Below are positions 38,001-49,257 of a stretch of DNA of 64,000 nt, in pieces. The first letter of the stretch is position 1. Every line of letters begins with the position of its first letter. Below the pieces are notes generated by a model that saw only the letters and a list, made by a program, of their open reading frames with translations, made no database searches and was not told where the DNA came from. The translations under genes and the position numbers were made by a program. The stretch is from assembly GCA_023484045.1 (NCBI GenBank), contig JAMDAA010000018.1:4-64003 (forward strand), given 5' to 3'. The DNA is from Patescibacteria group bacterium (lineage in GTDB: Bacteria; Patescibacteriota; Microgenomatia; Levybacterales; UBA12049).

Positions 38001-38246
38001 ATGTGGTACGTATATGTTTTGAAAAGTATAGTAAATTCGAGATTTTATACAGGATCAACAAATAACTTGGAAAGAAGATTAAAAGAACATAATTCAGGGC
38101 ATAGTAAATATACAAGGTTAACTAAACCTTTTGAAATTATATACCAAGAAACTTACAAAAAGAGACTTGAGGCACGGAGGAGAGAATTATTTTTAAAAAC
38201 TGGTAAGGGAAGAGAGTTATTGAAAAGTTTAATCATGGACTCTTAG
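38001..38246 (+). CDS. GIY-YIG nuclease family protein, copy 2 (embedded between tRNA-Val fragment and intact tRNA-Val)
   Basis: 'MWYVYVLKSIVNSRFYTGSTNNLERRLKEH'; stop codon TAG lies at positions 8-10 of the downstream tRNA. Confidence 0.75.
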   Translation: MWYVYVLKSIVNSRFYTGSTNNLERRLKEHNSGHSKYTRLTKPFEIIYQETYKKRLEARRRELFLKTGKGRELLKSLIMDS

Positions 38247-38310
38247 CTCAGTTGGTTAGAGCGCGTCGTTGACATCGACGAGGTCGCAGGTTCGAATCCT
38301 ACAGAGTCCA
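38237..38310 (+). tRNA. tRNA-Val (anticodon GAC)
   Basis: manual fold: GGACTCT-TA-GCTC-AGTTGGTTA-GAGC-G-CGTCG-TTGACAT-CGACG-AGGTC-GCAGG-TTCGAAT-CCTAC-AGAGTCC-A (one C-A mismatch in T stem). Confidence 0.75.
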
Positions 38311-38377
38311 CTTAGCTAAGTTTGTTAGAGCGGTCGCCTTAGGCGACAGGTCACAAGTTCGACTCTTGTCGAGCCCA
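38311..38377 (+). pseudogene. tRNA-like 3' fragment with degenerate D arm, same aberrant anticodon hairpin, distinct T arm and CGAGCCC-A 3' end
   Basis: 'GTTAGAGCGGTCGCCTTAGGCGACAGGTC' shared with 37951..37979; no matching 5' acceptor strand. Confidence 0.4.
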
Positions 38378-38729: not shown

Positions 38730-39293
38730 GTGAAAAATAAAATGAATAGAAAAATCGCGATGAGTATGATGTCTATTTTTTCAGTATTAACGCTTATGAG
38801 CGGAGCAGCATACGCAGCTTTTAGCTCGACTGCTTCTAATAATGGTAATACATTTGGAGCCGGAAGTATTTCGCTCACAATCAATGGCTCATCTGGTTCA
38901 GGTTCATCGCCGGTATTTAATGTTCCAGGTGCTGCACCGGGCCAAATATTTACTCAACCAATTATTTTGGCAAATGCTGGTTCTGATGCATCTAATAAGA
39001 CAAAGCTGGTAAATATTAATCATGGAACGGGAACAAGTCCTGATCTAGGAAACAAGCTAACATTACAGATATACGACGACGTGGATGGTAATGGAATACT
39101 TGATGGATCGGATCCGTTAAGAGGAAGTGCACATGTAACAGATGGTGCATGGAGCAATATCGATCTTGGATTTGGATTATCAGCTGGCGGAGCTCACAGA
39201 ATATTCGCAGTAATTACATTTGATAGTGATGCAGACAATACGTATCAAGGAGCGAATTCAAACTTTAATCTAAATTTCGAGACAAGCCAATAA
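38730..39293 (+). CDS. TasA/CalY/camelysin-family secreted protein (peptidase M73-like fibre subunit) with SipW-cognate signal peptide
   Basis: '...LMSGAAYAAFSSTASNNGNTFGAGSISLTINGS...FNVPGAAPGQIFTQPIILANAGS' aligns with B. subtilis TasA 'TWAAFNDIKSKDATFASGTLDLSA...LKPGDKLTKDFQFENNGS'. Confidence 0.7.
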   Translation: MKNKMNRKIAMSMMSIFSVLTLMSGAAYAAFSSTASNNGNTFGAGSISLTINGSSGSGSSPVFNVPGAAPGQIFTQPIILANAGSDASNKTKLVNINHGTGTSPDLGNKLTLQIYDDVDGNGILDGSDPLRGSAHVTDGAWSNIDLGFGLSAGGAHRIFAVITFDSDADNTYQGANSNFNLNFETSQ

Positions 39294-39363: not shown

Positions 39364-39903
39364 ATGAAAATAATAAAAATAGTTCAAAATATATTAATAG
39401 TATTAGTTCTTGTAATCCTTCCTCTAATATTTTTTATTTTAATAACTTCTAAATGGCCAATTATTTTGGGGATTCGCTCTTACACTGTCTTAACCGGCAG
39501 TATGCAACCTTCTATTCCAATTGGAGCGATTGTGTTCACAAAACCTACTGACTACAAAATAGGCGATATAATCTCGTTTCAAAGAAATAGCATCGTTGTC
39601 ACTCATAGAGTAGTTAATGTTCTAGAAAAACAAAATAATAAAATATCTTATCGAACAAAAGGTGATGCGAATGACTCAAAAGATAGTGAATTAGTTTCAA
39701 ATTCTCTAGTCGTCGGAAAAGTCATGTTTACACTACCTTTTCTAGGCAGATTTATTTCTTATCTAAAAACTGTGCCTGGATTTATAATATTTATTGTTTT
39801 ACCAACTATCATATTTGTTGGATTCGAGTTGTATGAAATTAAAAAAGAATTCGAAAAACAGATCGAGAAAAAACTTCTTAAAAAATTGCAAGGGAATATA
39901 TGA
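39364..39903 (+). CDS. sipW: signal peptidase I, SipW/archaeal type (S26B)
   Basis: 'VLTGSMQPSIPIGAIV' (Ser box), 'HRV', 'TKGDANDSKD' boxes, N- and C-terminal TM helices. Confidence 0.8.
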   Translation: MKIIKIVQNILIVLVLVILPLIFFILITSKWPIILGIRSYTVLTGSMQPSIPIGAIVFTKPTDYKIGDIISFQRNSIVVTHRVVNVLEKQNNKISYRTKGDANDSKDSELVSNSLVVGKVMFTLPFLGRFISYLKTVPGFIIFIVLPTIIFVGFELYEIKKEFEKQIEKKLLKKLQGNI

Positions 39904-40205
39904 AAAAAAGACTTATCGTTTTATTAGGATTAATTATTGTGATCGAAGGACTACTTTCTTACAAAATCACTTATGCATTATTTAAATCATCGGCAAGCAA
40001 TAAAAATAACTCCATCTCTGCCGCAATTAGTTTTCAAACACCAACTCCAACACCAACAGGGACGACGGTTATAATTTCAGGTGATGGCCAAGGGTCGCAA
40101 AATTCGGTCGATGTAATAAATATAAATAATCAAACAACGACTCAGGAAAATAATACGACGACAATAACCGAAATTCAGTCAGTCACAAATACTGATAATA
40201 ATTAA
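39900..40205 (+). CDS. small secreted protein with SipW-cognate signal peptide (TapA-like accessory candidate)
   Basis: 'LLSYKITYALFKSSASN' matches the xTYAxFxD/S cognate signal; Thr/Asn-rich tail. Confidence 0.5.
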   Translation: MKKRLIVLLGLIIVIEGLLSYKITYALFKSSASNKNNSISAAISFQTPTPTPTGTTVIISGDGQGSQNSVDVININNQTTTQENNTTTITEIQSVTNTDNN

Positions 40206-40239: not shown

Positions 40240-40839
40240 ATGAATTTAAAGAAAAGAATTGCGGCAGGAATCGTAACAGTTTCCATATTGGCAACCGTAT
40301 TGCCTGCGGCTGTATTCGCTGACACGACCATTAAAATCGATAAAAACGGTAAAAACTCAAAAAATACCGTGACTGTAACAAATAACACCACGTCCAAAAA
40401 AATACAAAAGAATTACTCTCTTGTATTTACCGGTGTGTTGTCTGCAGCCGGAACCGGTGGAAACACAATTGCGGATACAACTGGCGGAACAGGCGACCCT
40501 TCGATCAAAACTGGCAGTGCCACCTCTAAAGTAGATGTAACTGTCGGTGGAAGCTCAAACAAGGGATCTGAAGGCCAATGTCCGTGTGATTTAGGAAAAA
40601 CCGATGTAACCATTTCTGGAAACGGAGACAACTCGACAAATAAAGTTGACGTTAAAAATTCTAGTGGGTCTGTAGTCGTCCAGAAAAACATTTTTACGGT
40701 TGGGACATTAGTCGGTTCGTTCGCGGGAACCGGTGAAAACACGATAAGTGGAACAACAGGAGGCGATTCATCGATTACTTCTGGAAGCGCAAACTCTGAA
40801 GTAACAATAAAAGTTGATGGATCATCTAATAGCTTGTAG
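40240..40839 (+). CDS. secreted Gly/Thr/Asn repeat protein (shares repeat family with the minus-strand giant proteins)
   Basis: signal peptide ending 'AAVFADTTIKI'; repeats 'TGGNTIADTTGGTGDPSIKTGSATSKVDVTV' / 'TGENTISGTTGGDSSITSGSANSEVTIKV'. Confidence 0.6.
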   Translation: MNLKKRIAAGIVTVSILATVLPAAVFADTTIKIDKNGKNSKNTVTVTNNTTSKKIQKNYSLVFTGVLSAAGTGGNTIADTTGGTGDPSIKTGSATSKVDVTVGGSSNKGSEGQCPCDLGKTDVTISGNGDNSTNKVDVKNSSGSVVVQKNIFTVGTLVGSFAGTGENTISGTTGGDSSITSGSANSEVTIKVDGSSNSL

Positions 40840-40862
40840 AACAATCTACTTGCTAAATTTGA

Positions 40863-40907
40863 AAAGCCCTGTTTTCTGGTATACAAAACCCAGAAAGCGG
40901 GGCTTTA
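40863..40907. terminator. bidirectional terminator hairpin between the convergent surface operons
   Basis: long imperfect stem AAGCCCTGTTTTCTGG / CCAGAAAGCGGGGCTT. Confidence 0.45.
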
Positions 40908-40961
40908 GTTATAGAATTCAGAACCTAGAATATAATGTAAAGTAATGTAAAGGTGTAACCT

Positions 40962-41516
40962 TTACATTGGGCGGGCGAAAATGAGGAGACGTTGGAGGGC
41001 TGTGCCGATTGGTGTACAAGTTTGGAGGATTAATTCATTATTTTTGTTTTGGGTAAGATATTTTATATCACCCGGCCAAACGATTTTTTTGTCAAAAACC
41101 GTATACTTATATTCTTTTCCGTCTTTCCTAATAATTACTGAATCGCCGTTATTTAATTCTCCGATCCTTAAAAAAATTGTGTTGTAACGCGTTAGATTCC
41201 ATGGATAATCAGATGAGTGGCCGAAAATATAAATTAATCCTTTTTGTCCCGGATCGACCGTTCCTTTTGCCCTCGCGACACCTTTCTTTAAAACTTCGCG
41301 ATATTCTTTTTCGTTAAACGGATCGACATTTTTGATAATCGGGGAGATGAGTTTAATCTTTGGAATTTCTATGACATAAGATTTACTATCGATTTTAATC
41401 TGGGGCGGGGGCAAAAGATAGGCTGAAATAACCGGATAATAAATAAAAAGAATAATAGTTATCGAAAGGGTTATAAAAATTTCTCCGAGCCGTTTTTTAA
41501 TTTGGATTGATTTCAT
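40962..41516 (-). CDS. sortase family transpeptidase
   Basis: N-terminal TM, catalytic His 'IFGHSS', Cys in 'LILQTCTP' (TLxTC), Arg near C-terminus. Confidence 0.75.
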   Translation of the reverse strand: MKSIQIKKRLGEIFITLSITIILFIYYPVISAYLLPPPQIKIDSKSYVIEIPKIKLISPIIKNVDPFNEKEYREVLKKGVARAKGTVDPGQKGLIYIFGHSSDYPWNLTRYNTIFLRIGELNNGDSVIIRKDGKEYKYTVFDKKIVWPGDIKYLTQNKNNELILQTCTPIGTALQRLLIFARPM

Positions 41517-41587
41517 AATCCGATTTTAACAGAACAGTTAATTTTATTCAAAAAAAATCCTGGCAATGCCAGGACAACAACTTCTAT

Positions 41588-42733
41588 TTACGCTAAAACT
41601 GGAGGAGACACACCAGAGTTAAATCGCAGATACACCCCGGCAAAGAAGAACATTATCGCAAGTATTATTCCAAAAAGCGTCAGGAAATTTCCGGTTGTCG
41701 GAAGACTCGTAACAGATCCCGAAACCGATCCGTTTCCACTGCCGCCTCCACCGATACTTGGTCTTGGATTACCGTCACCGTCTCCCGGTTTTGGTCCCGG
41801 TGGAGGCGGAGGAGGTGGCAGAACAGGAGGTGGATTTTCACCGCCACCTGTGGGTGGAGGCGGAGTTACTTTTTCACAGCAAGTTTTGATTTCCGCTTTT
41901 GATCCATTAATATTCTCGTTTTTAATTGTTACTACGCCAAAAATATTTCCGGTCGCGATTAAAACACTTCCTAAATTTCCGTTTGCCGAGTTACCGCCCG
42001 TGTTTAAATTTTGATAAGCGTTATTTAATATATTCGCGAAATTCGTTTCATTAACTTTAATATTATTTTGGGATAGAAAATTTACATTATTTTGTGAATT
42101 ACTTCCGTTCCCGCCGACAAAAATCGAGAGCGATCCACCCGATCTCTGAGGATCCACATTAATATTAACATTTTTGTTTTCAATACTTGTGACTGCCGTT
42201 ACATTCCCGGTTGTTGTCGAAACGTTTCCGTTATTATCGTTTACAGAATTATTTCCGGTATTAGCGTTTGTAATCACATTGTTAATAATGTTTGCGTAAT
42301 TTGTTTGGTTAATATTTACATTACCTATCACATTTGTAATAACACTATTCGTTGTATCCGAACCGTTATTATTTATTTGAACATTTGTGTTTGTTAGACA
42401 ACACGGATTTTCGGCCGAATTTCGATTTATATTTTGATTATTTATATTCGTCGAAGAGTTTACATTGCCTGCTTGAATATTAGTTTCTGATCCGGTATTT
42501 CCCGACGCCTGATTATTTCCGGTATCGGCATTATTTTGAACATTGTTTTGAATATCTGCCTGATTTGATTGCTGAATGCTTGTATTTTGAGAAACATTAA
42601 CATTAAGCCGAGATTGAGAAGCATCTCCATTCCCCGTAATCGAAAGGTTAATTCCCTCAGCACTTGTCGCGCCAGTAAAACCAAGCACAAAAGGTAAAAT
42701 GATCGATATCGATGCCAATATTTTTCTTAACAT
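41588..42733 (-). CDS. LPXTG-anchored Asn-rich repeat surface protein
   Basis: signal peptide; Asn-rich repeats; Pro-rich stalk 'PPPPTGGGENPPPVLPPPPPPPGPKPG'; C-terminal 'LPTTG' + hydrophobic helix + 'LRFNS' tail. Confidence 0.65.
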   Translation of the reverse strand: MLRKILASISIILPFVLGFTGATSAEGINLSITGNGDASQSRLNVNVSQNTSIQQSNQADIQNNVQNNADTGNNQASGNTGSETNIQAGNVNSSTNINNQNINRNSAENPCCLTNTNVQINNNGSDTTNSVITNVIGNVNINQTNYANIINNVITNANTGNNSVNDNNGNVSTTTGNVTAVTSIENKNVNINVDPQRSGGSLSIFVGGNGSNSQNNVNFLSQNNIKVNETNFANILNNAYQNLNTGGNSANGNLGSVLIATGNIFGVVTIKNENINGSKAEIKTCCEKVTPPPPTGGGENPPPVLPPPPPPPGPKPGDGDGNPRPSIGGGGSGNGSVSGSVTSLPTTGNFLTLFGIILAIMFFFAGVYLRFNSGVSPPVLA

Positions 42734-42788
42734 ACTTTTTATTTATAAACTGCGGCAGAATTTTTCGAAGTGTCCCGCTAAGCGGGAC

Positions 42789-45023
42789 TCAACGGGGCAG
42801 GTTAACATCGCTTTTTAAACGATGTGAAATTTTGAGAAAAGACAATCTTTTTCTAAAAATTACGAATACGATTATCAATGGCAATAATATTAATAACCAT
42901 GCAAGATTTACAGACACTTTTCCGCTTTGTCCACCTACTGTTGTCGACATTCCGAATACACTACTCAAATTTGCGTGATTAGAAACTCCGGCAATTTTCA
43001 CGTCGGCAGTCGTGTATGAATCGCCCAAAGACGAATCGTTGCTGTTTGAACCCGCAACAACCGCTGCTGCTGTCGGAGTAGGCGAAGACGCAGTACCGGA
43101 ATTACCATTATTGTTATTATTATTGTTGTTTGTAGGACTTTGTCCGCCGACCGGATGATTTTCTGGCGCAGATGTTGGATTTTGGGCTAACTTTATGTCA
43201 TCTGCTTTCGGTTGTTTTTCTTGTCCCGGTGTCACAAAATCTCCGAGCCAACTTCCGAAAACATTAACAACCGTCACCATTAATTTTCCGCCTTTTATAT
43301 TGTTGTTAACAAAATTTACGAGGTTTGCGATTACTTTCGCGTCGCCGGTTTTGATCGTCGAATCTCCGCCTGTATTTTTAGACGCATCGTTTCCGCCGGT
43401 ATTTGCCGTTAGGTTAATATTATTGACGACTTTACCCGTGTTTGTCTGAACAGTCGTATTGTTTGTGTTTTGTGAAACATCGGTCGTATTCGTTGAATTA
43501 CTGCCGTTTCCAGAATTTACCGCGGTAATCGTGCCGTCTGCTCCTACTTTAAATTCTGTTCCGTCCGATCCGGCAAAATTACTGCCTGTTGGCGCACCCA
43601 ATAACTTTCCAACCCAGTTTCCTGCTTCATTAACAACCACTAACCACCAATTGACGCCGTCAACATTGCTGTTTGCGATGTTTAAAACATTCGCATCAAC
43701 CGATGTGTTTCCGGTTGTAACAGATGAATTACCATTCGTATTTCCACTGACACTGTTATCTCCCGATATCGCATTAAGAGTTAGGTTATTTTCTATGTTA
43801 GCGTCGTTCTTTTGGAAAGAGTTATTATTTGTTGTCTTGTCATAATTTACAGTATTATCCGAACCCGTTCCGTTTCCTGCATTAGCCAAAGTTGTACTTG
43901 CCCCCGAATTTGCAAATGCCTTGTCAACCTCGCTTTGCGGCAAAATTATGTCGCCGACCAAATTCCCAAAAACATTAACAACTCCGTAAACTACATTTCC
44001 GGCCATATTATTATTAACAAAGTTCAGTACGTTTGCTGCAACATTTGCGTCACCGGTTGTAATCGATGAATTCCCGTCGGTATTTTTAGACGCTGTGTTA
44101 TTTCCGGAGTCGGAAAGAAGCGTCATGTTGTTTCCGACAGTCCCGTCGTTATTTTGAAAAGTCGTGTTATTCGTGTTTTGTGAAAGATTGGCATTATTTG
44201 TGGTATCAGCACCGTTATTTGCGTTTGCGACCATCGCGTTTCCGGATGTTCCACACCCCGAAACACAACTTGCGCCAAAATCCAAAACTATATCGCCGAC
44301 ATGATCGTCTGCGACATTAAATTCAGAAACCGCAACACCCGCAACATTCGTATTTAATCCGGTTATAATCGTACCCGTTGTGTTGGCATTTCCGCTATTA
44401 ATAGTCGAGTCTCCACCTGTATTTTTGGAAGCAGAATTTTGTCCGGATATCGAATCCTGATTAAGATTATTAGAAACTACACCGCTGTTATTTTGAACTA
44501 CAGTACTACCGTCTGTAATATTTGCTGTTCCGTTATTTTCTGACCCAGTTCCATTACTGCTGTTTGCTACCAAAACTCCGCCCGAAACATTGGCCGGATC
44601 AATCGCAGATAAATTACTGTTTCCGAGACTGTTAATAACTCCACTATTTGTTATATCCCCGCTATTAATAGTATTGTCACCGACTTTACCATCTGATGTC
44701 GTCCCGGAAGTCGTAGGAACATTTGTTGCAGTAACTGTTGGGGTCGGAGTCGGATCATCTGAATGATGGCGACGTGGTTTTTCCGTCGGAGTAGGGGTTG
44801 GTGTCGAACTAAGTATTTCATTCAAAGTCGGTGTTGTGGGCGCGGCTGGAACGTCTGGCGCTGTTGGAGCCTGGGGCACATCTGGCGCTGTAGGGGCAGC
44901 AGACGGTACAATCGGCGCATCGGGAGGCGTAGGAATATCAAACGCTCTTACAGGCGGCGCCTGCATTAATAAAAGTACCGCTATCGAAAGTATCGCTAAA
45001 TATTTTTTAATTTTTTTAATCAT
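42789..45023 (-). CDS. giant (744 aa) Asn/Thr/Gly repeat surface protein with Pro/Ala/Thr N-terminal linker and C-terminal TM anchor
   Basis: signal peptide; 'APTAPDVPQAPTAPDVPAAPTTPT' linker; >8 repeats 'SG.N.ASKNTGG.S.I.TG.A.V.AN.LN..N.N..G'; C-terminal 'LLILLPLIIVFVIFRKR'. Confidence 0.65.
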   Translation of the reverse strand: MIKKIKKYLAILSIAVLLLMQAPPVRAFDIPTPPDAPIVPSAAPTAPDVPQAPTAPDVPAAPTTPTLNEILSSTPTPTPTEKPRRHHSDDPTPTPTVTATNVPTTSGTTSDGKVGDNTINSGDITNSGVINSLGNSNLSAIDPANVSGGVLVANSSNGTGSENNGTANITDGSTVVQNNSGVVSNNLNQDSISGQNSASKNTGGDSTINSGNANTTGTIITGLNTNVAGVAVSEFNVADDHVGDIVLDFGASCVSGCGTSGNAMVANANNGADTTNNANLSQNTNNTTFQNNDGTVGNNMTLLSDSGNNTASKNTDGNSSITTGDANVAANVLNFVNNNMAGNVVYGVVNVFGNLVGDIILPQSEVDKAFANSGASTTLANAGNGTGSDNTVNYDKTTNNNSFQKNDANIENNLTLNAISGDNSVSGNTNGNSSVTTGNTSVDANVLNIANSNVDGVNWWLVVVNEAGNWVGKLLGAPTGSNFAGSDGTEFKVGADGTITAVNSGNGSNSTNTTDVSQNTNNTTVQTNTGKVVNNINLTANTGGNDASKNTGGDSTIKTGDAKVIANLVNFVNNNIKGGKLMVTVVNVFGSWLGDFVTPGQEKQPKADDIKLAQNPTSAPENHPVGGQSPTNNNNNNNNGNSGTASSPTPTAAAVVAGSNSNDSSLGDSYTTADVKIAGVSNHANLSSVFGMSTTVGGQSGKVSVNLAWLLILLPLIIVFVIFRKRLSFLKISHRLKSDVNLPR

Positions 45024-45133
45024 GTCTATTTTCCTTTAATTCTTAATTCTGAACTCTAAATTCTAAATTTTTTTCCTGGTGTTTGTAGGGGTTTCGAGGA
45101 AGTGCTCTCGAAACGCCCTACAAACTTACCAAA

Positions 45134-46393
45134 CTAGACTGAAAGACCAAGGCTCAATAATAAATCGTGCAAATTAATAGTTAAATTAACTCCGCCCCAA
45201 TTTAATTCTGGCCAAGTTATTTCGTCTCCAACCTGGTTAACGTTTACAGAATTTTGGATGTCTGTCTTAACGTCTGCATTGCCGGATTCGACTTTTGGAT
45301 CTCCTTTTGGATTTCCAGTATTGTCATCTGCTTCGTTGTTTCCGGTTTTTGCGTCTAAATCGTAAAGATTGTTGTTAAGATAGGCACCATTTGCTTGGAA
45401 AACACCGTCGTCTTGAAGATCTCCAATTTTTCCATCGGATGATAGTGTCGCATCGATTGTGTTATCCGAATCTGTACCGTTTCCTTCGATTGTGGCATTA
45501 ACCTTACCTAGAAGGCATCCGCCGCAATCTATGTCAGCTGCGTTAAAGTTAACTTTATTGTCAACTTTTGCCGTAACATCTGCGTTGCCGCTTTTAATTT
45601 CGACAGCTCCGCCGGTGTTATCATCGGCTTCGTTGTTTCCGGTTTTTGCGTCAACGTTAACATTATTGTCTACGTATGCGCTATTATCCTGAGAAACAAC
45701 TACAGCGCTCGAGTGAGTAAGATCAATCGTATTGTCTGATTCCTCACCGTTACTTATAATGCCGAGGCTCAAATCTCCACCTTTTCCAAGACCATTGCCT
45801 ACTTTTGCAAAATTTGCATTAGCCATTGTCGAAAGCGAGGTATTTACCTTTGCATTTCCGGAGGTGATTTTAACATCTCCGCCTGTATTGTCTTCTGCGC
45901 TGTTATTACCGGTTTTTGCGTCAACATTGACGTCGTTATTAACGTCAGCATTGTTTGTCTGGAAAACAGTCGTTACGTTATTTTTATCAAGATTAACGGT
46001 ATTGTCTGATTCTGTCCCATTTTTCTTGATTTCAACTGTTGTATTTCCAGATGCGCAACAATCAATACTTGCTTGATTGCTGTTAACTTCATTCGTTACG
46101 TTTGCCGTAACATTCGAATTTCCGGATTTTATGGTAACGTTTCCGCCCGTGTTATCATCGGCTGTATTATTACCAGTTTTTGCGTCAACATTAACATTAT
46201 TTGTTATATTGGCGGTGTTGTTTTGTACAACAACTCTTGTCTGGTTCATGGTAACATTCGCGGTATTATTTGTGTCGCTACCGTTTCCGGAAATTTTTAT
46301 TGTCGTATCTGCAAACGCTAATGGCATAAAACCATTAAGCAATAAAGCTCCGGTCGCTATACCTGTTACTAATTTCTTTGTAAATTTTGTCAT
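45134..46393 (-). CDS. secreted Asn-rich repeat protein (419 aa), first gene of minus-strand surface operon
   Basis: signal peptide 'LLLNGFMPLAFADTTIKI'; repeats 'NVNVDAKTGNN.A.DNTGG.V.I.SGNA.V'; paired Cys 'IDCC'/'IDCGGC'. Confidence 0.65.
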   Translation of the reverse strand: MTKFTKKLVTGIATGALLLNGFMPLAFADTTIKISGNGSDTNNTANVTMNQTRVVVQNNTANITNNVNVDAKTGNNTADDNTGGNVTIKSGNSNVTANVTNEVNSNQASIDCCASGNTTVEIKKNGTESDNTVNLDKNNVTTVFQTNNADVNNDVNVDAKTGNNSAEDNTGGDVKITSGNAKVNTSLSTMANANFAKVGNGLGKGGDLSLGIISNGEESDNTIDLTHSSAVVVSQDNSAYVDNNVNVDAKTGNNEADDNTGGAVEIKSGNADVTAKVDNKVNFNAADIDCGGCLLGKVNATIEGNGTDSDNTIDATLSSDGKIGDLQDDGVFQANGAYLNNNLYDLDAKTGNNEADDNTGNPKGDPKVESGNADVKTDIQNSVNVNQVGDEITWPELNWGGVNLTINLHDLLLSLGLSV

Positions 46394-46518
46394 TTATATT
46401 TTCACCTCCCTTCCGATCTGAATTTCCTTCAAAAAATTTTGAAAGATGGCACTTCTTTGCCCCGCTTTAGCGGGACATCTGCCGCATTTTGTTTTTTCTG
46501 CCTAAGCTTGAAAAACAA

Positions 46519-46579
46519 AAAACGGAGGCTCCTTCATTCCATTCTGCAATGCAGAATCGAGTGAAAAAGCCTCCGTTTG
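46519..46579 (-). promoter_or_regulatory. leader terminator-like hairpin (AAACGGAGGCT ... AGCCTCCGTTT + U-run) within ~200-nt 5' UTR of the minus-strand surface operon
   Basis: perfect 11-bp outer stem, inner hairpin TTCTGCATTGCAGAA, followed by TTTTTTGTTTTT on the transcript strand. Confidence 0.4.
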
Positions 46580-46606
46580 CGGTCAGCCTTTTAACTTTGT
46601 AAATAA

Positions 46607-46635
46607 TTTATATAATGTTAAATTTTGTTTGTCAA
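46607..46635 (-). promoter_or_regulatory. sigma70-like promoter (TTGACA-17-TATAAA) for the minus-strand surface operon
   Basis: TTGACA = revcomp of 46630..46635; -10 TATAAA 17 nt downstream. Confidence 0.35.
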
Positions 46636-46691
46636 GGACCAATTTTTAAAAATTGGTCCGCAGACCCGACTTAAATCGCTCTTCGGGTAAG

Positions 46692-46946
46692 TCAAGATTT
46701 CGTTTTAATATTTATTCTATTTCTTATAGTACTTTGAACAATTTGTTGAGCACTCGTCGTCTGAGTTCCTTGTGTTAGGGATTGATCCGTTATCGTGATA
46801 TTTGTTTTTTGAATACTTCTTTTGGAGATCTGAACGACTTTTCCATCCTGGACGTAAATTTCGACACTCCCAAAAATTACACCGTCTAATGCCTTTTCGA
46901 TTTCACCCAAGAGTTTTGAGGAATCCTTCTTCAAAGGGTAACTCAT
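46692..46946 (-). CDS. YezD/DUF2292-family small protein
   Basis: 'GEIEKALDGVIFGSVEIYVQDGKVVQISKRSIQKT' matches the DUF2292 'GSVxIxIQDGKVVQI' core. Confidence 0.5.
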   Translation of the reverse strand: MSYPLKKDSSKLLGEIEKALDGVIFGSVEIYVQDGKVVQISKRSIQKTNITITDQSLTQGTQTTSAQQIVQSTIRNRINIKTKS

Positions 46947-46962
46947 AAATTATAGAATCTTT

Positions 46963-47676
46963 TTATATCTTTTTAAGACTGAGTTTTATCGTTTCTTTTT
47001 TACCGTTAATTTCTCCGACCTGCAATGTTAAAGTCTTGTAATTATCGTCGATCGGAAAACCGAGCCTCGTGAGTTTTGTCGAAATCGCCTGGATTTGAAC
47101 CGGGTCGTTATGAATATCAGCCGCGAGCATTTCAGAATTTCCATTAACCGAAAGCCTTACATAATCTTTACTGTTTATTTCGATCGCTTGTTTATAATCG
47201 TTTGTGATTTTTAGATTAACTATAAGAAAAGTTCTGCCTTTAACAGCGTTTGCTTTTTGACCTTTTATTATAATCGCGTCCTGAAGATCTACGCCTTCGA
47301 CAAGGTATTTAATTTTTGTAACCTCATCGCCTTTACTGTTTTTGATCGGGAATAATAATTCTTTATTAATTGTCTGCGATGCCTTAGTCTGAGGAGCTTG
47401 AACTCTTGTGTCGACGTATTTTGTTTTTCCGGCAAATTTTGTTCCCAAAAAGAACACGCCCACCAAAAGCACAATAACAACGATTGCTCCAATGATAATC
47501 GCAATTATTAAATTATCTTTTTTACTCGTTCGTGGATTAAATTCTGGTCTTTTAATATCTGCGACATGTTCGTTTATTGCAGTACTTATTTTATGAGATG
47601 TGTCGCTGACTGCGTCAAAAAATGTCGTAAGAAAAGTAGGTAACAGTGCTGGCATCGATAATATTCTGTCTCTCAT
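46963..47676 (-). CDS. membrane-anchored DUF4352-like (Ig-fold) protein
   Basis: single N-terminal TM; 'RTFLIVNLKITNDYKQAIEINSKDYVRLSVNGNSEMLAAD' pattern typical of DUF4352 lipoprotein domains. Confidence 0.4.
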   Translation of the reverse strand: MRDRILSMPALLPTFLTTFFDAVSDTSHKISTAINEHVADIKRPEFNPRTSKKDNLIIAIIIGAIVVIVLLVGVFFLGTKFAGKTKYVDTRVQAPQTKASQTINKELLFPIKNSKGDEVTKIKYLVEGVDLQDAIIIKGQKANAVKGRTFLIVNLKITNDYKQAIEINSKDYVRLSVNGNSEMLAADIHNDPVQIQAISTKLTRLGFPIDDNYKTLTLQVGEINGKKETIKLSLKKI

Positions 47677-47802: not shown

Positions 47803-49257
47803 ATGAACGTTTTCAAAAAAAATTTCATCAATTTATTGCCTTTTGTTATTGTATTTATAAGTTCTTTATACGTTCCGACCGACGCGGATTTAGGATGGCA
47901 TTTAAAATATGGGGAACACTTTTTTAAAACCGGAAAAATTCTGCGTGATAATATTTTTTCAACACAGATGGCCAATTATAAGTGGGTAAATCACTCTTGG
48001 GGAACAGATCTAATTTCGTATTCTATCTTTAATAATTTTGGCTTTCTTGGCTTAACGATTTTAGGAGCGTTAATTGTAACTTTAACTTTTTATTTCTTTT
48101 CGAAAGCGTATAAATTATCGCTTTGGAATAAAACTCTAATTTTCCCTTTGATGCTGTATTTCGTGAACCCGGTAAACTTAATATCGTTTAGATCACAACT
48201 TATCTCAATTCTTTTTACCGGTATTCTGTTTTTCGTTTTATCTAAGCAGGATGAAAACAAAAAATATCTATATTTCCTGCCGCTGATTTTTCTGACTTGG
48301 GCCAATTTGCATGGCGGATTCATTATCGGATTTGCGATATACGCTCTTTGGGTTTTTATCAAAGTAGCAATAGGAATAATTTTAAAAAATAAAGATTTTA
48401 AACGGGAAATATTTTTTTTATTGAGCATTCTTATATTAAGCATAATTGCGTGTTTAATAAATCCGTTCGGAATCGGCGTATTTAAAGAGTCATTTAATCA
48501 TTTTGGAAATCCGGCGTTAAAATATATTATGGAATGGACAAGTTTTGAAGATTTTTCCGATCTTTGGTGGAATCAAATAATAATTATAAATTTGATATTA
48601 ATCGGAACAATTTTTATGTTTTTCAGCGGGAAAATTAGGCAAAATTTACCGTTTATAATTATCGCAATCATCCTTTTTTTAATGTCTTTTACAGAAAGAA
48701 GATACGCGTGGACTGCCTATTATTCGATAATCGTTTTTATTAAGCCGGTCGCAGATTTTTTTAAACCCGACAGTAAAAAATACACAAATTTAGCATCTAC
48801 AATAATTTTAGGAATAACTTTAATCATTGTTATTTTCATAAAAAGTCCGTTTGATCAATATTCGACAATGTCATGGGACAGATATTGTAAGGATTATATT
48901 GGATGTTCTTCAAAATCAGCTGAATTTTTACAAAATTATAAATACGATAAAGAAAAATTATTAACGCTCTACAATTGGGGAGGATGGCTTATCTGGAATT
49001 ACCCAGAAATTAAACCAACGGTCGACGGAAGAATGACGTTGTGGAAAGGAGAAAACGGATATAGTGGATTTTTAGATTATTATTCTTACGAACAAAACTG
49101 GAAAGACATCAATAAGTCGAAATACAACATCGTTTATGTTTCACCTTATAAATCGATTTATAATCGGCTAATTCAATTAACTAAAGAAAAAAAATGGAAA
49201 TTAGTTTACAAAGATAAATATTCCGGAATTTTTGTGAGGAATTCTGTTACGGATTGA
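47803..49257 (+). CDS. polytopic membrane protein, possible GT-C glycosyltransferase/oligosaccharyl-transferase-like
   Basis: ~12 TM helices; N-terminal loop 'DADLGWHLKYGEHFFKTGKILRDNIFS'; no secure family. Confidence 0.4.
   Translation: MNVFKKNFINLLPFVIVFISSLYVPTDADLGWHLKYGEHFFKTGKILRDNIFSTQMANYKWVNHSWGTDLISYSIFNNFGFLGLTILGALIVTLTFYFFSKAYKLSLWNKTLIFPLMLYFVNPVNLISFRSQLISILFTGILFFVLSKQDENKKYLYFLPLIFLTWANLHGGFIIGFAIYALWVFIKVAIGIILKNKDFKREIFFLLSILILSIIACLINPFGIGVFKESFNHFGNPALKYIMEWTSFEDFSDLWWNQIIIINLILIGTIFMFFSGKIRQNLPFIIIAIILFLMSFTERRYAWTAYYSIIVFIKPVADFFKPDSKKYTNLASTIILGITLIIVIFIKSPFDQYSTMSWDRYCKDYIGCSSKSAEFLQNYKYDKEKLLTLYNWGGWLIWNYPEIKPTVDGRMTLWKGENGYSGFLDYYSYEQNWKDINKSKYNIVYVSPYKSIYNRLIQLTKEKKWKLVYKDKYSGIFVRNSVTD

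Follow-up and report, generated by a model that had tools for sequence, protein, structure and literature searches.

We analyzed a stretch of 64,000 nucleotides (nt), called the window below, from a Patescibacteria group bacterium of the Microgenomatia, order Levybacterales (assembly GCA_023484045.1, contig JAMDAA010000018.1, positions 4 to 64,003); positions are counted from the first letter of the window. Four of its genes encode proteins that carry signal peptides and share one repeat: H (419 amino acids [aa]; 45134-46393), G (744 aa; 42789-45023), and F (381 aa; 41588-42733) on the minus strand and D (199 aa; 40240-40839) on the plus strand. A sortase gene (40962-41516, minus strand) lies between F and D. 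As detailed below, the repeat is a real, conserved, and previously unannotated domain family, the paralogs H, G, F, and D, all extracytoplasmic, share it as a unit of 87 residues, and the family defines a Microgenomates-wide envelope gene cluster.

A profile hidden Markov model (HMM) trained on the four H copies matched only H, G, F, and D among all six-frame open reading frames (ORFs) of the window. It delimited a unit of ∼87 aa and located 13 full copies, four in H (per-copy i-Evalues of 1e-32 to 1e-41), four in G (1e-10 to 1e-14), three in F (1e-5 to 1e-13), and two in D (1e-10). The alignment of the 13 copies spans 87 columns, of which N8, G9, N30, G45, N47, and G62 are invariant. The HMM and the alignment thus confirm the Asn/Thr/Gly repeat that an earlier inspection of the letters of the window (the sequence-only reading) had recognized in the same four ORFs. 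They do not confirm its length, which had been given as 28 to 32 aa in tandem. The 30-aa consensus NVxVDAKTGNNxAxDNTGGxVxIKSGNAxV is the best-conserved core of the 87-aa unit and recurs every 88 to 99 aa (TGNN stands at H residues 73, 161, 251, and 350), and hhalign comparisons of thirds and halves of the unit revealed no internal sub-repeat (probability ≤2%). A period of 28 to 32 aa, or three 29-aa turns per unit, was rejected, as there was neither a sub-repeat nor coevolution at a constant offset of ∼29 residues. Likewise, the count of five secreted proteins between 40240 and 46393 does not hold, as this range contains four repeat proteins and a sortase; a protein with a weak half copy, C, lies outside this range.

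The cysteine pairs mentioned in the same reading were located in all four proteins, at C112/C113 and C290/C293 in H, C111/C112 and C285/C286 in F, and C253/C257 in G and as one CxC pair (C114/C116) in D. In both H and F, they sit at the ends of copies 1 and 3, and cysteine counts are mostly even across the orthologs of the paralogs. We also agree that the plus-strand ORFs opposite these genes are shadows. Each gene has one antisense frame with only 1 to 14 stops and with open runs of 119 to 141 codons, an effect of codon usage: AAT, AAC, GTT, GGA, ACA, and GAT, which dominate the sense strand, yield no antisense stops. A low-complexity artifact or a wrong choice of strand is contradicted by 641+ homologs, by the invariant columns, and by synteny.

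Searches of Pfam-A and NCBIfam returned nothing on the repeat at E ≤ 1, and PDB sequences gave 0 matches at E ≤ 10 in a profile search and none with phmmer, in line with the initial impression that it belongs to no named domain. Two families named at that time as conceivable matches, DUF11 and the collagen-binding B repeat, had no match at E ≤ 1 in H, G, F, or D. Pfam-A also detected no CnaB, SpaA, or immunoglobulin (Ig) domain and no HemolysinCabind/RTX repeat (PF00353) in H, G, F, and D, and the chaplin domain (PF03777) had no Pfam match at E ≤ 1. Scans of Pfam-A and NCBIfam gave no match to SLH or another surface-layer (S-layer) family, and the Peptidase_M73 domain is absent from the repeat proteins, being found only in the neighboring ORF at 38730-39293. 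CsgG, CsgE, and CsgF had no match among the neighboring ORFs. When the domain profile was compared with the curlin repeats of Escherichia coli CsgA and CsgB, hhalign gave a probability of 0.6% and hmmsearch gave <2 bits. Every homolog for which a source name is given goes under "hypothetical protein" and lacks a precomputed Pfam domain, and our literature searches found no earlier description of the repeat family.

As read from their sequences, H, G, F, and D all begin with ordinary Sec-type signal peptides, which agrees with their earlier description as secreted proteins. The N terminus of H consists of MTKFTKKLVTGIATGALLLNGFMPLAFA up to the predicted cleavage site and DTT after it. There is no N-terminal cap: the ortholog consensus is AFA-x-TTIxISGNG, and mature H, F, and D open directly with the first copy of the repeat, or rung 1. 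The rungs of H lie at 46040-46306, 45779-46042, 45512-45772, and 45206-45502 (minus strand), and a Gly-rich linker follows rung 2 in H as it does in F. H has no anchor and ends in an acidic and hydrophobic C-terminal tail (45137-45232) that resembles DFDFDFDLSDLLxLLGL. D comprises nothing beyond a signal peptide and two rungs (40324-40590 and 40600-40836, plus strand); it has neither cap nor anchor and ends on a bare rung.

G starts with a signal peptide, a Pro/Thr-rich linker, and a partial rung near residues 110 to 150, which precede its four full rungs (44316-44576, 43977-44237, 43635-43895, and 43269-43529, minus strand). Rungs 2 to 4 are each trailed by an extra element of ∼28 aa, VVNVFGxWxGD…P, and rung 1 is followed by a degenerate form of it; with this element, the repeat period of G is ∼115 aa (43269-44576). 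The C terminus of G (42792-42911) comprises VNLAWLL, a transmembrane (TM) helix, and a basic tail. Its orthologs (L001-L082) conserve a C-terminal INLAW(L/I)LL motif, after which come a TM helix and a tail of Arg and Lys, and the whole looks like a sorting signal of an undescribed type. The segment VNLTINLHDLLLSLGL of the H tail resembles the start of this motif. F has three rungs (42389-42652, 42128-42388, and 41870-42130, minus strand), followed by a Pro-rich spacer, LPTTG at aa 344 to 348 (41690-41704), a TM helix, and a basic tail. Of 64 F orthologs, 57 carry an LPxTG-type signal with the TM helix and basic tail behind it; the one-rung forms use GLSxTS or GLAATS. F alone has the features of an LPXTG protein, with a sortase encoded next to it; H, D, and G are without the motif. 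By these signals, the four proteins are predicted to be exported, with F as a sortase substrate, G anchored in the membrane, and H and D anchorless. The surface location of the repeat proteins is fairly secure.

The sortase itself (PF04203, 1.4e-23) scored 54.8 bits against TIGR01076, above the cutoff of 39.35, and its motif LQTCTP is of the TLxTC type. A strong terminator-like hairpin followed by T7 (41557-41575, minus strand), identified by consensus match only, separates the stop codon of F from the start of the sortase gene.

For the fold, we combined structure prediction with coevolution. The AlphaFold check proposed with the sequence-only reading was run on H, and AlphaFold2 (AF2), given mature H and 120 sequences, predicted an all-beta structure with a predicted local distance difference test score (pLDDT) of 79.3 and a predicted template modeling score (pTM) of 0.75; with 42 sequences, the pLDDT was 65. 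In each repeat of the model, strand c takes up 22 residues (domain positions 24 to 45) and strand d takes up 18 residues (64 to 81), mini-strands at 48 to 50 and 57 to 60 flank an NTGG turn, and positions 1 to 23 are less regular. A Foldseek search of the PDB with the AF2 model found no match at E ≤ 1e-3. All 28 sub-threshold matches were parallel beta-solenoids, with FapC and CsgA on top; none was significant.

The DSSP output of the AF2 model does not separate parallel from antiparallel strands, and we judged the topology by mean-field direct coupling analysis (DCA) of 1,788 unique domain copies (Meff 1,486) and of 287 full-length H sequences. The domain analysis showed a dominant antidiagonal at i+j of 104 to 108, joining positions 24 to 49 with positions 57 to 79, and a second antidiagonal at i+j of 19 to 21 around the GNG turn. 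In full-length H, strand d of repeat n couples with strand c of repeats n and n+1 and not with that of repeat n-1, and shifted-register controls were ∼0; the pitch of a solenoid predicts such a pattern. Same-strand couplings at ±2 positions reached 0.85 to 1.2 between adjacent repeats and 0.23 to 0.34 between next-but-one repeats, with odd offsets at ∼0, which indicates parallel in-register stacking. Coupling between c and d is limited to the conserved face, there is none between the variable faces, and entropy alternates between the faces, the outer ones being hypervariable (>3 bits). The inward face carries Q28-N30-A32-V34-N36-V38-x-A42 opposite A64-V66-V68-V70-N72-A74-N75-N77, and the corners T44-G45-x-N47, N52-T53-G54-G55, T61-G62, and G7-N8-G9 are invariant. 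In the 13-copy alignment, the core ladder residues are common to all four paralogs. Equivalent positions in all four H repeats covary strongly, and the pairs R1-R3 and R2-R4 are as strong as neighbors, a pattern that points to concerted evolution of, or gene conversion between, the rungs or to an external constraint common to them. We discarded an ice-binding or antifreeze face, since the exposed faces are the variable ones.

Together, the model and the couplings suggest that each repeat most likely forms one very wide beta-arch, with strands c and d joined by a tip of three corners (T44-G45-x-N47, N52-T53-G54-G55, and T61-G62-D63), and that the arches stack parallel and in register into a flat two-sheet beta-solenoid; we regard this fold class as fairly secure. 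The beta-solenoid or beta-helix fiber envisaged by the sequence-only reading is thereby supported in part: AF2 and coevolution favor a solenoid, its rung has ∼87 rather than ∼30 residues, and a fiber is suggested indirectly by the uncapped ends and by a signal between R4 and R1 that we describe below.

The family is large. H has >641 homologs, and at E ≤ 1e-3 the domain profile picked up the representatives of 3,513 clusters (50% identity level), 2,388 of which also matched at E ≤ 1e-10; the carriers fall mostly into two size classes, ∼400 to 440 aa (H type) and ∼700 to 800 aa (G type). A scan of one genome per GTDB species recovered 80 loci. Informatively named carriers are all Microgenomates (Levy-, Davies-, Gottesman-, Woese-, Ames-, and Chisholmbacteria), with the exception of one metagenome-assembled genome (MAG) labeled Nealsonbacteria (L053). 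Many carrier MAGs (L004, L006, L011, L013, and others) are titled "uncultured Gammaproteobacteria bacterium" (TPA), and their synteny and identity are Microgenomates-like; these titles are probably placeholder or wrong labels. Viral contigs contained no relatives, and a phage origin was rejected on this ground.

The loci share the order J(TM)-DUF2292-H-G-F-sortase/D. J, the first gene of the conserved cluster (46963-47676, minus strand), encodes a single-pass membrane protein of 237 aa for which we found no significant family or PDB match, and the gene next to it (46692-46946, minus strand) encodes a small DUF2292/OscA-like protein without a signal peptide (PF10055, 7.8e-11). J was found upstream of H in 79 of 80 loci and DUF2292 in 74 of 80; downstream, G followed immediately in 76/77 and, where the flank sufficed, F in 51/62 and the sortase in 48/62, and D stood on the opposite strand in 32/57. 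The near-universal linkage of J and DUF2292 to H suggests a possible role in assembly or regulation, and J may be an assembly factor. The 298-nt intergenic region upstream of H (46394-46691) is unusually long and has no Rfam match. Copy numbers are fixed, with four rungs in 78 of 82 H orthologs and in 76 of 80 G orthologs and either three (48/64) or one (14/64) in F, in contrast to typical adhesins with their variable-number repeats. A PF00353 protein occurs near the cluster in a single locus (L002).

As our best reading, we propose that the cluster may encode a curli-like or chaplin-like surface polymer templated on cell-bound paralogs, including the wall-anchored F, and we put the probability of this reading at about 45%. 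The core of the solenoid would be an Ala/Val zipper flanked by Asn/Gln ladders (Q28, N30, N36, N72, N75, and N77). Because rung 1 is exposed at the N terminus and the last rung of D is bare, the open sheet edges are expected to dock mutually; a four-rung plank, at least ∼7 nm wide, would leave long edges of this kind unsatisfied. F, covalently linked to peptidoglycan by the sortase, and G, anchored in the membrane, would act as cell-bound templates, on which H, the four-rung major subunit, and D could stack head-to-tail into a cross-beta fiber or ribbon. D, and perhaps also the half-rung protein C, would take a minor or terminal place. In H and F, the Cys pairs behind rungs 1 and 3, together with the Gly-rich linker that follows rung 2, hint at a staple over rung 2 or at cross-links between subunits. 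In H, coevolution between strand c of R1 and strand d of R4 exceeds that of the other non-neighbor pairs, which hints at head-to-tail stacking between molecules. From such evidence we infer polymerization, a division of roles among the paralogs, and disulfides.

Several points weigh against a templated polymer. The evidence base is computational throughout, the R4-R1 signal is modest, and R4 is divergent; moreover, the conserved C-terminal tail of H could cap the stack and block it. Between next-but-one rungs, the distance would be ∼9.6 Å, rather far for a direct R1-R3 disulfide, and F and the sortase are missing from ∼20% of the loci with enough flank. As for the fold beneath it, the full-length DCA is shallow and confounded by same-position covariation across repeats, and we know of no solved structure of a parallel solenoid with 22-residue strands, so that AF2 could err.

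Of the other explanations, one keeps the same wide solenoid and dispenses with polymerization. Each protein would then work alone as a coat component or adhesin, with F attached to the wall, G to the membrane, and H and D set free or bound loosely, and their variable outer faces would bind host-cell or environmental ligands. Hypervariable outer faces fit ligand binding or antigenic drift, the conserved tail of H, predicted to form a short helix, might be a cap, and fixed copy numbers also suit a protein of defined size; furthermore, Patescibacteria are episymbionts that need adhesins. We nevertheless consider single molecules somewhat unlikely, since rung 1 at the mature start of H, F, and D and the bare end of D would leave 7-nm sheet edges unsatisfied, and since the core ladder residues agree in all four paralogs, R4-R1 coevolution exceeds that of other non-neighbor pairs, and the anchorless H and D are syntenic with anchored paralogs. 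The ribbons of stacked rungs could also be joined laterally and cross-linked by the conserved cysteines into a two-dimensional S-layer or sheath, like the archaeal amyloid hoops. The cluster is near universal and single-copy-like across the Microgenomates, as a core envelope component would be, and disulfides join the cross-beta hoops of archaeal sheaths (PMC11576556). In addition, transmission electron microscopy under cryogenic conditions (cryo-TEM) of groundwater cells of the candidate phyla radiation (CPR) showed a surface layer that repeats at spacings of 3.8 and 10 nm and showed no outer membrane (10.1101/2020.05.14.094862). By arithmetic only, a rung of 22 to 33 residues would be ∼7 to 11 nm wide and eight rungs would be ∼3.8 nm high; this match of dimensions is numerology, and the cells seen by cryo-TEM were not identified as Microgenomates. 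We found no evidence for lateral contacts, as the apparent coupling of the GNG loop with the tip (ladder B) is without repeat specificity, and no S-layer anchoring domain, SLH or other, was matched in Pfam-A and NCBIfam. The sheath study did not find bacterial structural homologs of the sheath proteins (PMC11576556), and overall we regard a two-dimensional layer as unlikely.

A different fold was considered as well. We initially read the i+j ∼106 ladder as a long hairpin or meander, perhaps a closed eight-stranded barrel; more generally, the proteins could form an antiparallel meander of long hydrogen-bonded beta-hairpins (sheet, barrel, or sandwich) and serve, for example, as a rigid stalk. 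The ladder and its continuation at ∼19 (106 minus 87) are equally expected for a meander, DSSP is blind to the difference between parallel and antiparallel strands, and the coupling of c(R1) with d(R4) could equally reflect barrel closure. We dropped the meander as the best model because coupling is restricted to one face and adjacent repeats couple in register: the variable faces of c and d, whose columns are the most informative, show no coupling at all, and the ±2 same-strand couplings are stronger for adjacent than for next-but-one repeats. The invariant Gly/Asn/Thr corners would, moreover, break the supposed hairpin, and the sub-threshold Foldseek matches included parallel solenoids only, with no barrels or sandwiches. 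Altogether, a meander appears improbable.

In its logic, the proposed polymer resembles curli, in which a conserved inward zipper of N/Q and hydrophobic residues is combined with a variable outer face and with head-to-tail docking of R5 and R1 (PMC10192328). Like the curli and Fap subunits (CsgA, CsgB, FapC, and FapB), the repeat proteins are predicted to be secreted and to consist of a few fixed strand-arc-strand repeats in parallel stacking. On computational evidence, they have the same kind of inward zipper and variable outer face; their ends are uncapped, and a cell-bound paralog could template a free major subunit, with docking that we infer here. In contrast to curli, they show no sequence or profile similarity to Curlin_rpt (PF07012; S-x5-Q-x-G-x-G-N-x-A-x3-Q), and their rungs have ∼87 residues, with strands of ∼22 and ∼18, instead of the ∼22 residues per rung of CsgA, making them ∼4 times wider. 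The host is a monoderm member of the CPR, the locus encodes a sortase, a TM protein, and DUF2292 in place of CsgG/E/F, and the proteins differ from curli in their sortase/LPxTG and TM anchoring and conserved cysteines.

In Streptomyces, the chaplins have an amyloid-forming domain in common; the long chaplins ChpA-C carry sortase signals and are anchored to the wall, and the short, free chaplins ChpD-H are thought to coassemble on them. The likeness to our cluster is one of system logic only: paralogs that share one domain, some sortase anchored and others free, with Cys pairs, on a monoderm surface. The chaplin domain is ∼40 aa long and hydrophobic, whereas the unit described here has 87 aa and is rich in Asn, Thr, and Asp; taxa and gene contexts differ too. 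Beta-solenoid surface proteins such as autotransporter passengers (Ag43), the Ca2+-dependent antifreeze MpAFP RIV, and RTX beta-rolls are likewise extracellular and built of Gly/Asn/Asp/Thr-rich rungs with Gly/Asn corners. They occur among the sub-threshold Foldseek matches, the best with E values of 0.009 to 0.05 and TM scores below 0.15, but their rungs have 9 to 25 residues in three short strands, and they are capped monomers rather than sets of paralogs. Unlike SpaA-type pili, the cluster has a conserved major paralog, H, without LPXTG, and its sortase falls under the class cutoffs (class C, 60.8 versus 160; class D, 60.4 versus 165). With archaeal amyloid sheaths, the shared trait would be disulfides. 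The repeat proteins are not members of curli, chaplins, or sheaths by sequence or detectable structure, and accessory genes of those systems are also lacking.

In its boldest form, which we consider doubtful, the proposal is that a cross-beta, functional-amyloid-like polymer coats Microgenomates cells or forms fibers on them, with 87-residue rungs, a sortase-anchored nucleator, and disulfide staples. Such a polymer would correspond to curli and archaeal amyloid sheaths in a monoderm, CPR-specific form and might be the periodic layer of CPR cells. If so, the rung width of ∼7 to 11 nm would define a new class of beta-solenoid. Should the templated-polymer model proposed above be right, it would name a core structure in the envelope of this major uncultured lineage and supply a testable mechanism for it, a functional-amyloid-like system would use sortase anchoring in place of an outer-membrane channel, and beta-solenoid rungs would reach ∼4 times the width of those in curli. 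Envelope proteins of CPR bacteria are barely known, even though these episymbionts depend on their cell surface for their way of life. The cluster is among the most conserved non-housekeeping loci traced across the Microgenomates, with the same gene order in ∼80 species representatives, and its structural genes are all annotated as hypothetical. With 3,513 unannotated clusters at 50% identity, the repeat family merits a Pfam/InterPro entry.

Next to D, on the plus strand, lie the genes for a TasA/camelysin-like protein (38730-39293; PF12389, 2.2e-10), a SipW-type signal peptidase (39364-39903; TIGR02228, 86.5 bits versus a cutoff of 51.85), and protein C (101 aa; 39900-40205). C consists of a SipW-type signal, which contains …TYALFKSSAS…, a Pro/Thr linker, and a half rung (40065-40202) that ends just before the TGxN corner. 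The half-rung match is weak (15.4 bits with an equal bias, HMM positions 1 to 46, E of 9e-6 in an eight-sequence database), and C may be a remnant, a cap, or an adaptor that links the TasA-like system to the repeat system. The adjacency of TasA-like and SipW genes and the makeup of C recall tapA-sipW-tasA of Bacillus, with the difference that the repeat proteins carry Sec signals of the ordinary type and lack Peptidase_M73. Fibers of TasA arise when jelly-roll subunits exchange donor strands, not when solenoids stack. The order D-C-SipW-TasA recurs in five other loci (L002, L008, L021, L059, and L081); of 57 loci, 9 had SipW near the cluster and 6 had TasA. As the TasA/SipW module adjoins only a minority of loci, we rejected it as a core part and treat it as a neighboring, separate module. 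Beside it, in the region 38001-38369, an ORF for an 81-aa GIY-YIG protein (PF01541, 5.6e-18) ends within a tRNA-Val gene (38237-38311), directly after which there is a partial tRNA-like match (38313-38369; 31 bits in Rfam). This arrangement may be a mobile-element scar or a tRNA duplication.

On the other side of the cluster, the plus strand encodes a polytopic membrane protein of 484 aa (47803-49257) without a Pfam or NCBIfam match. Its N-terminal DADLGWH loop is reminiscent of GT-C glycosyltransferases; a linked glycosyltransferase was rejected, as the gene adjoins the cluster in only 14 of 82 loci and the protein has no family match. NxS/T sequons are numerous in the repeat proteins, with 18 in H and 27 in G.

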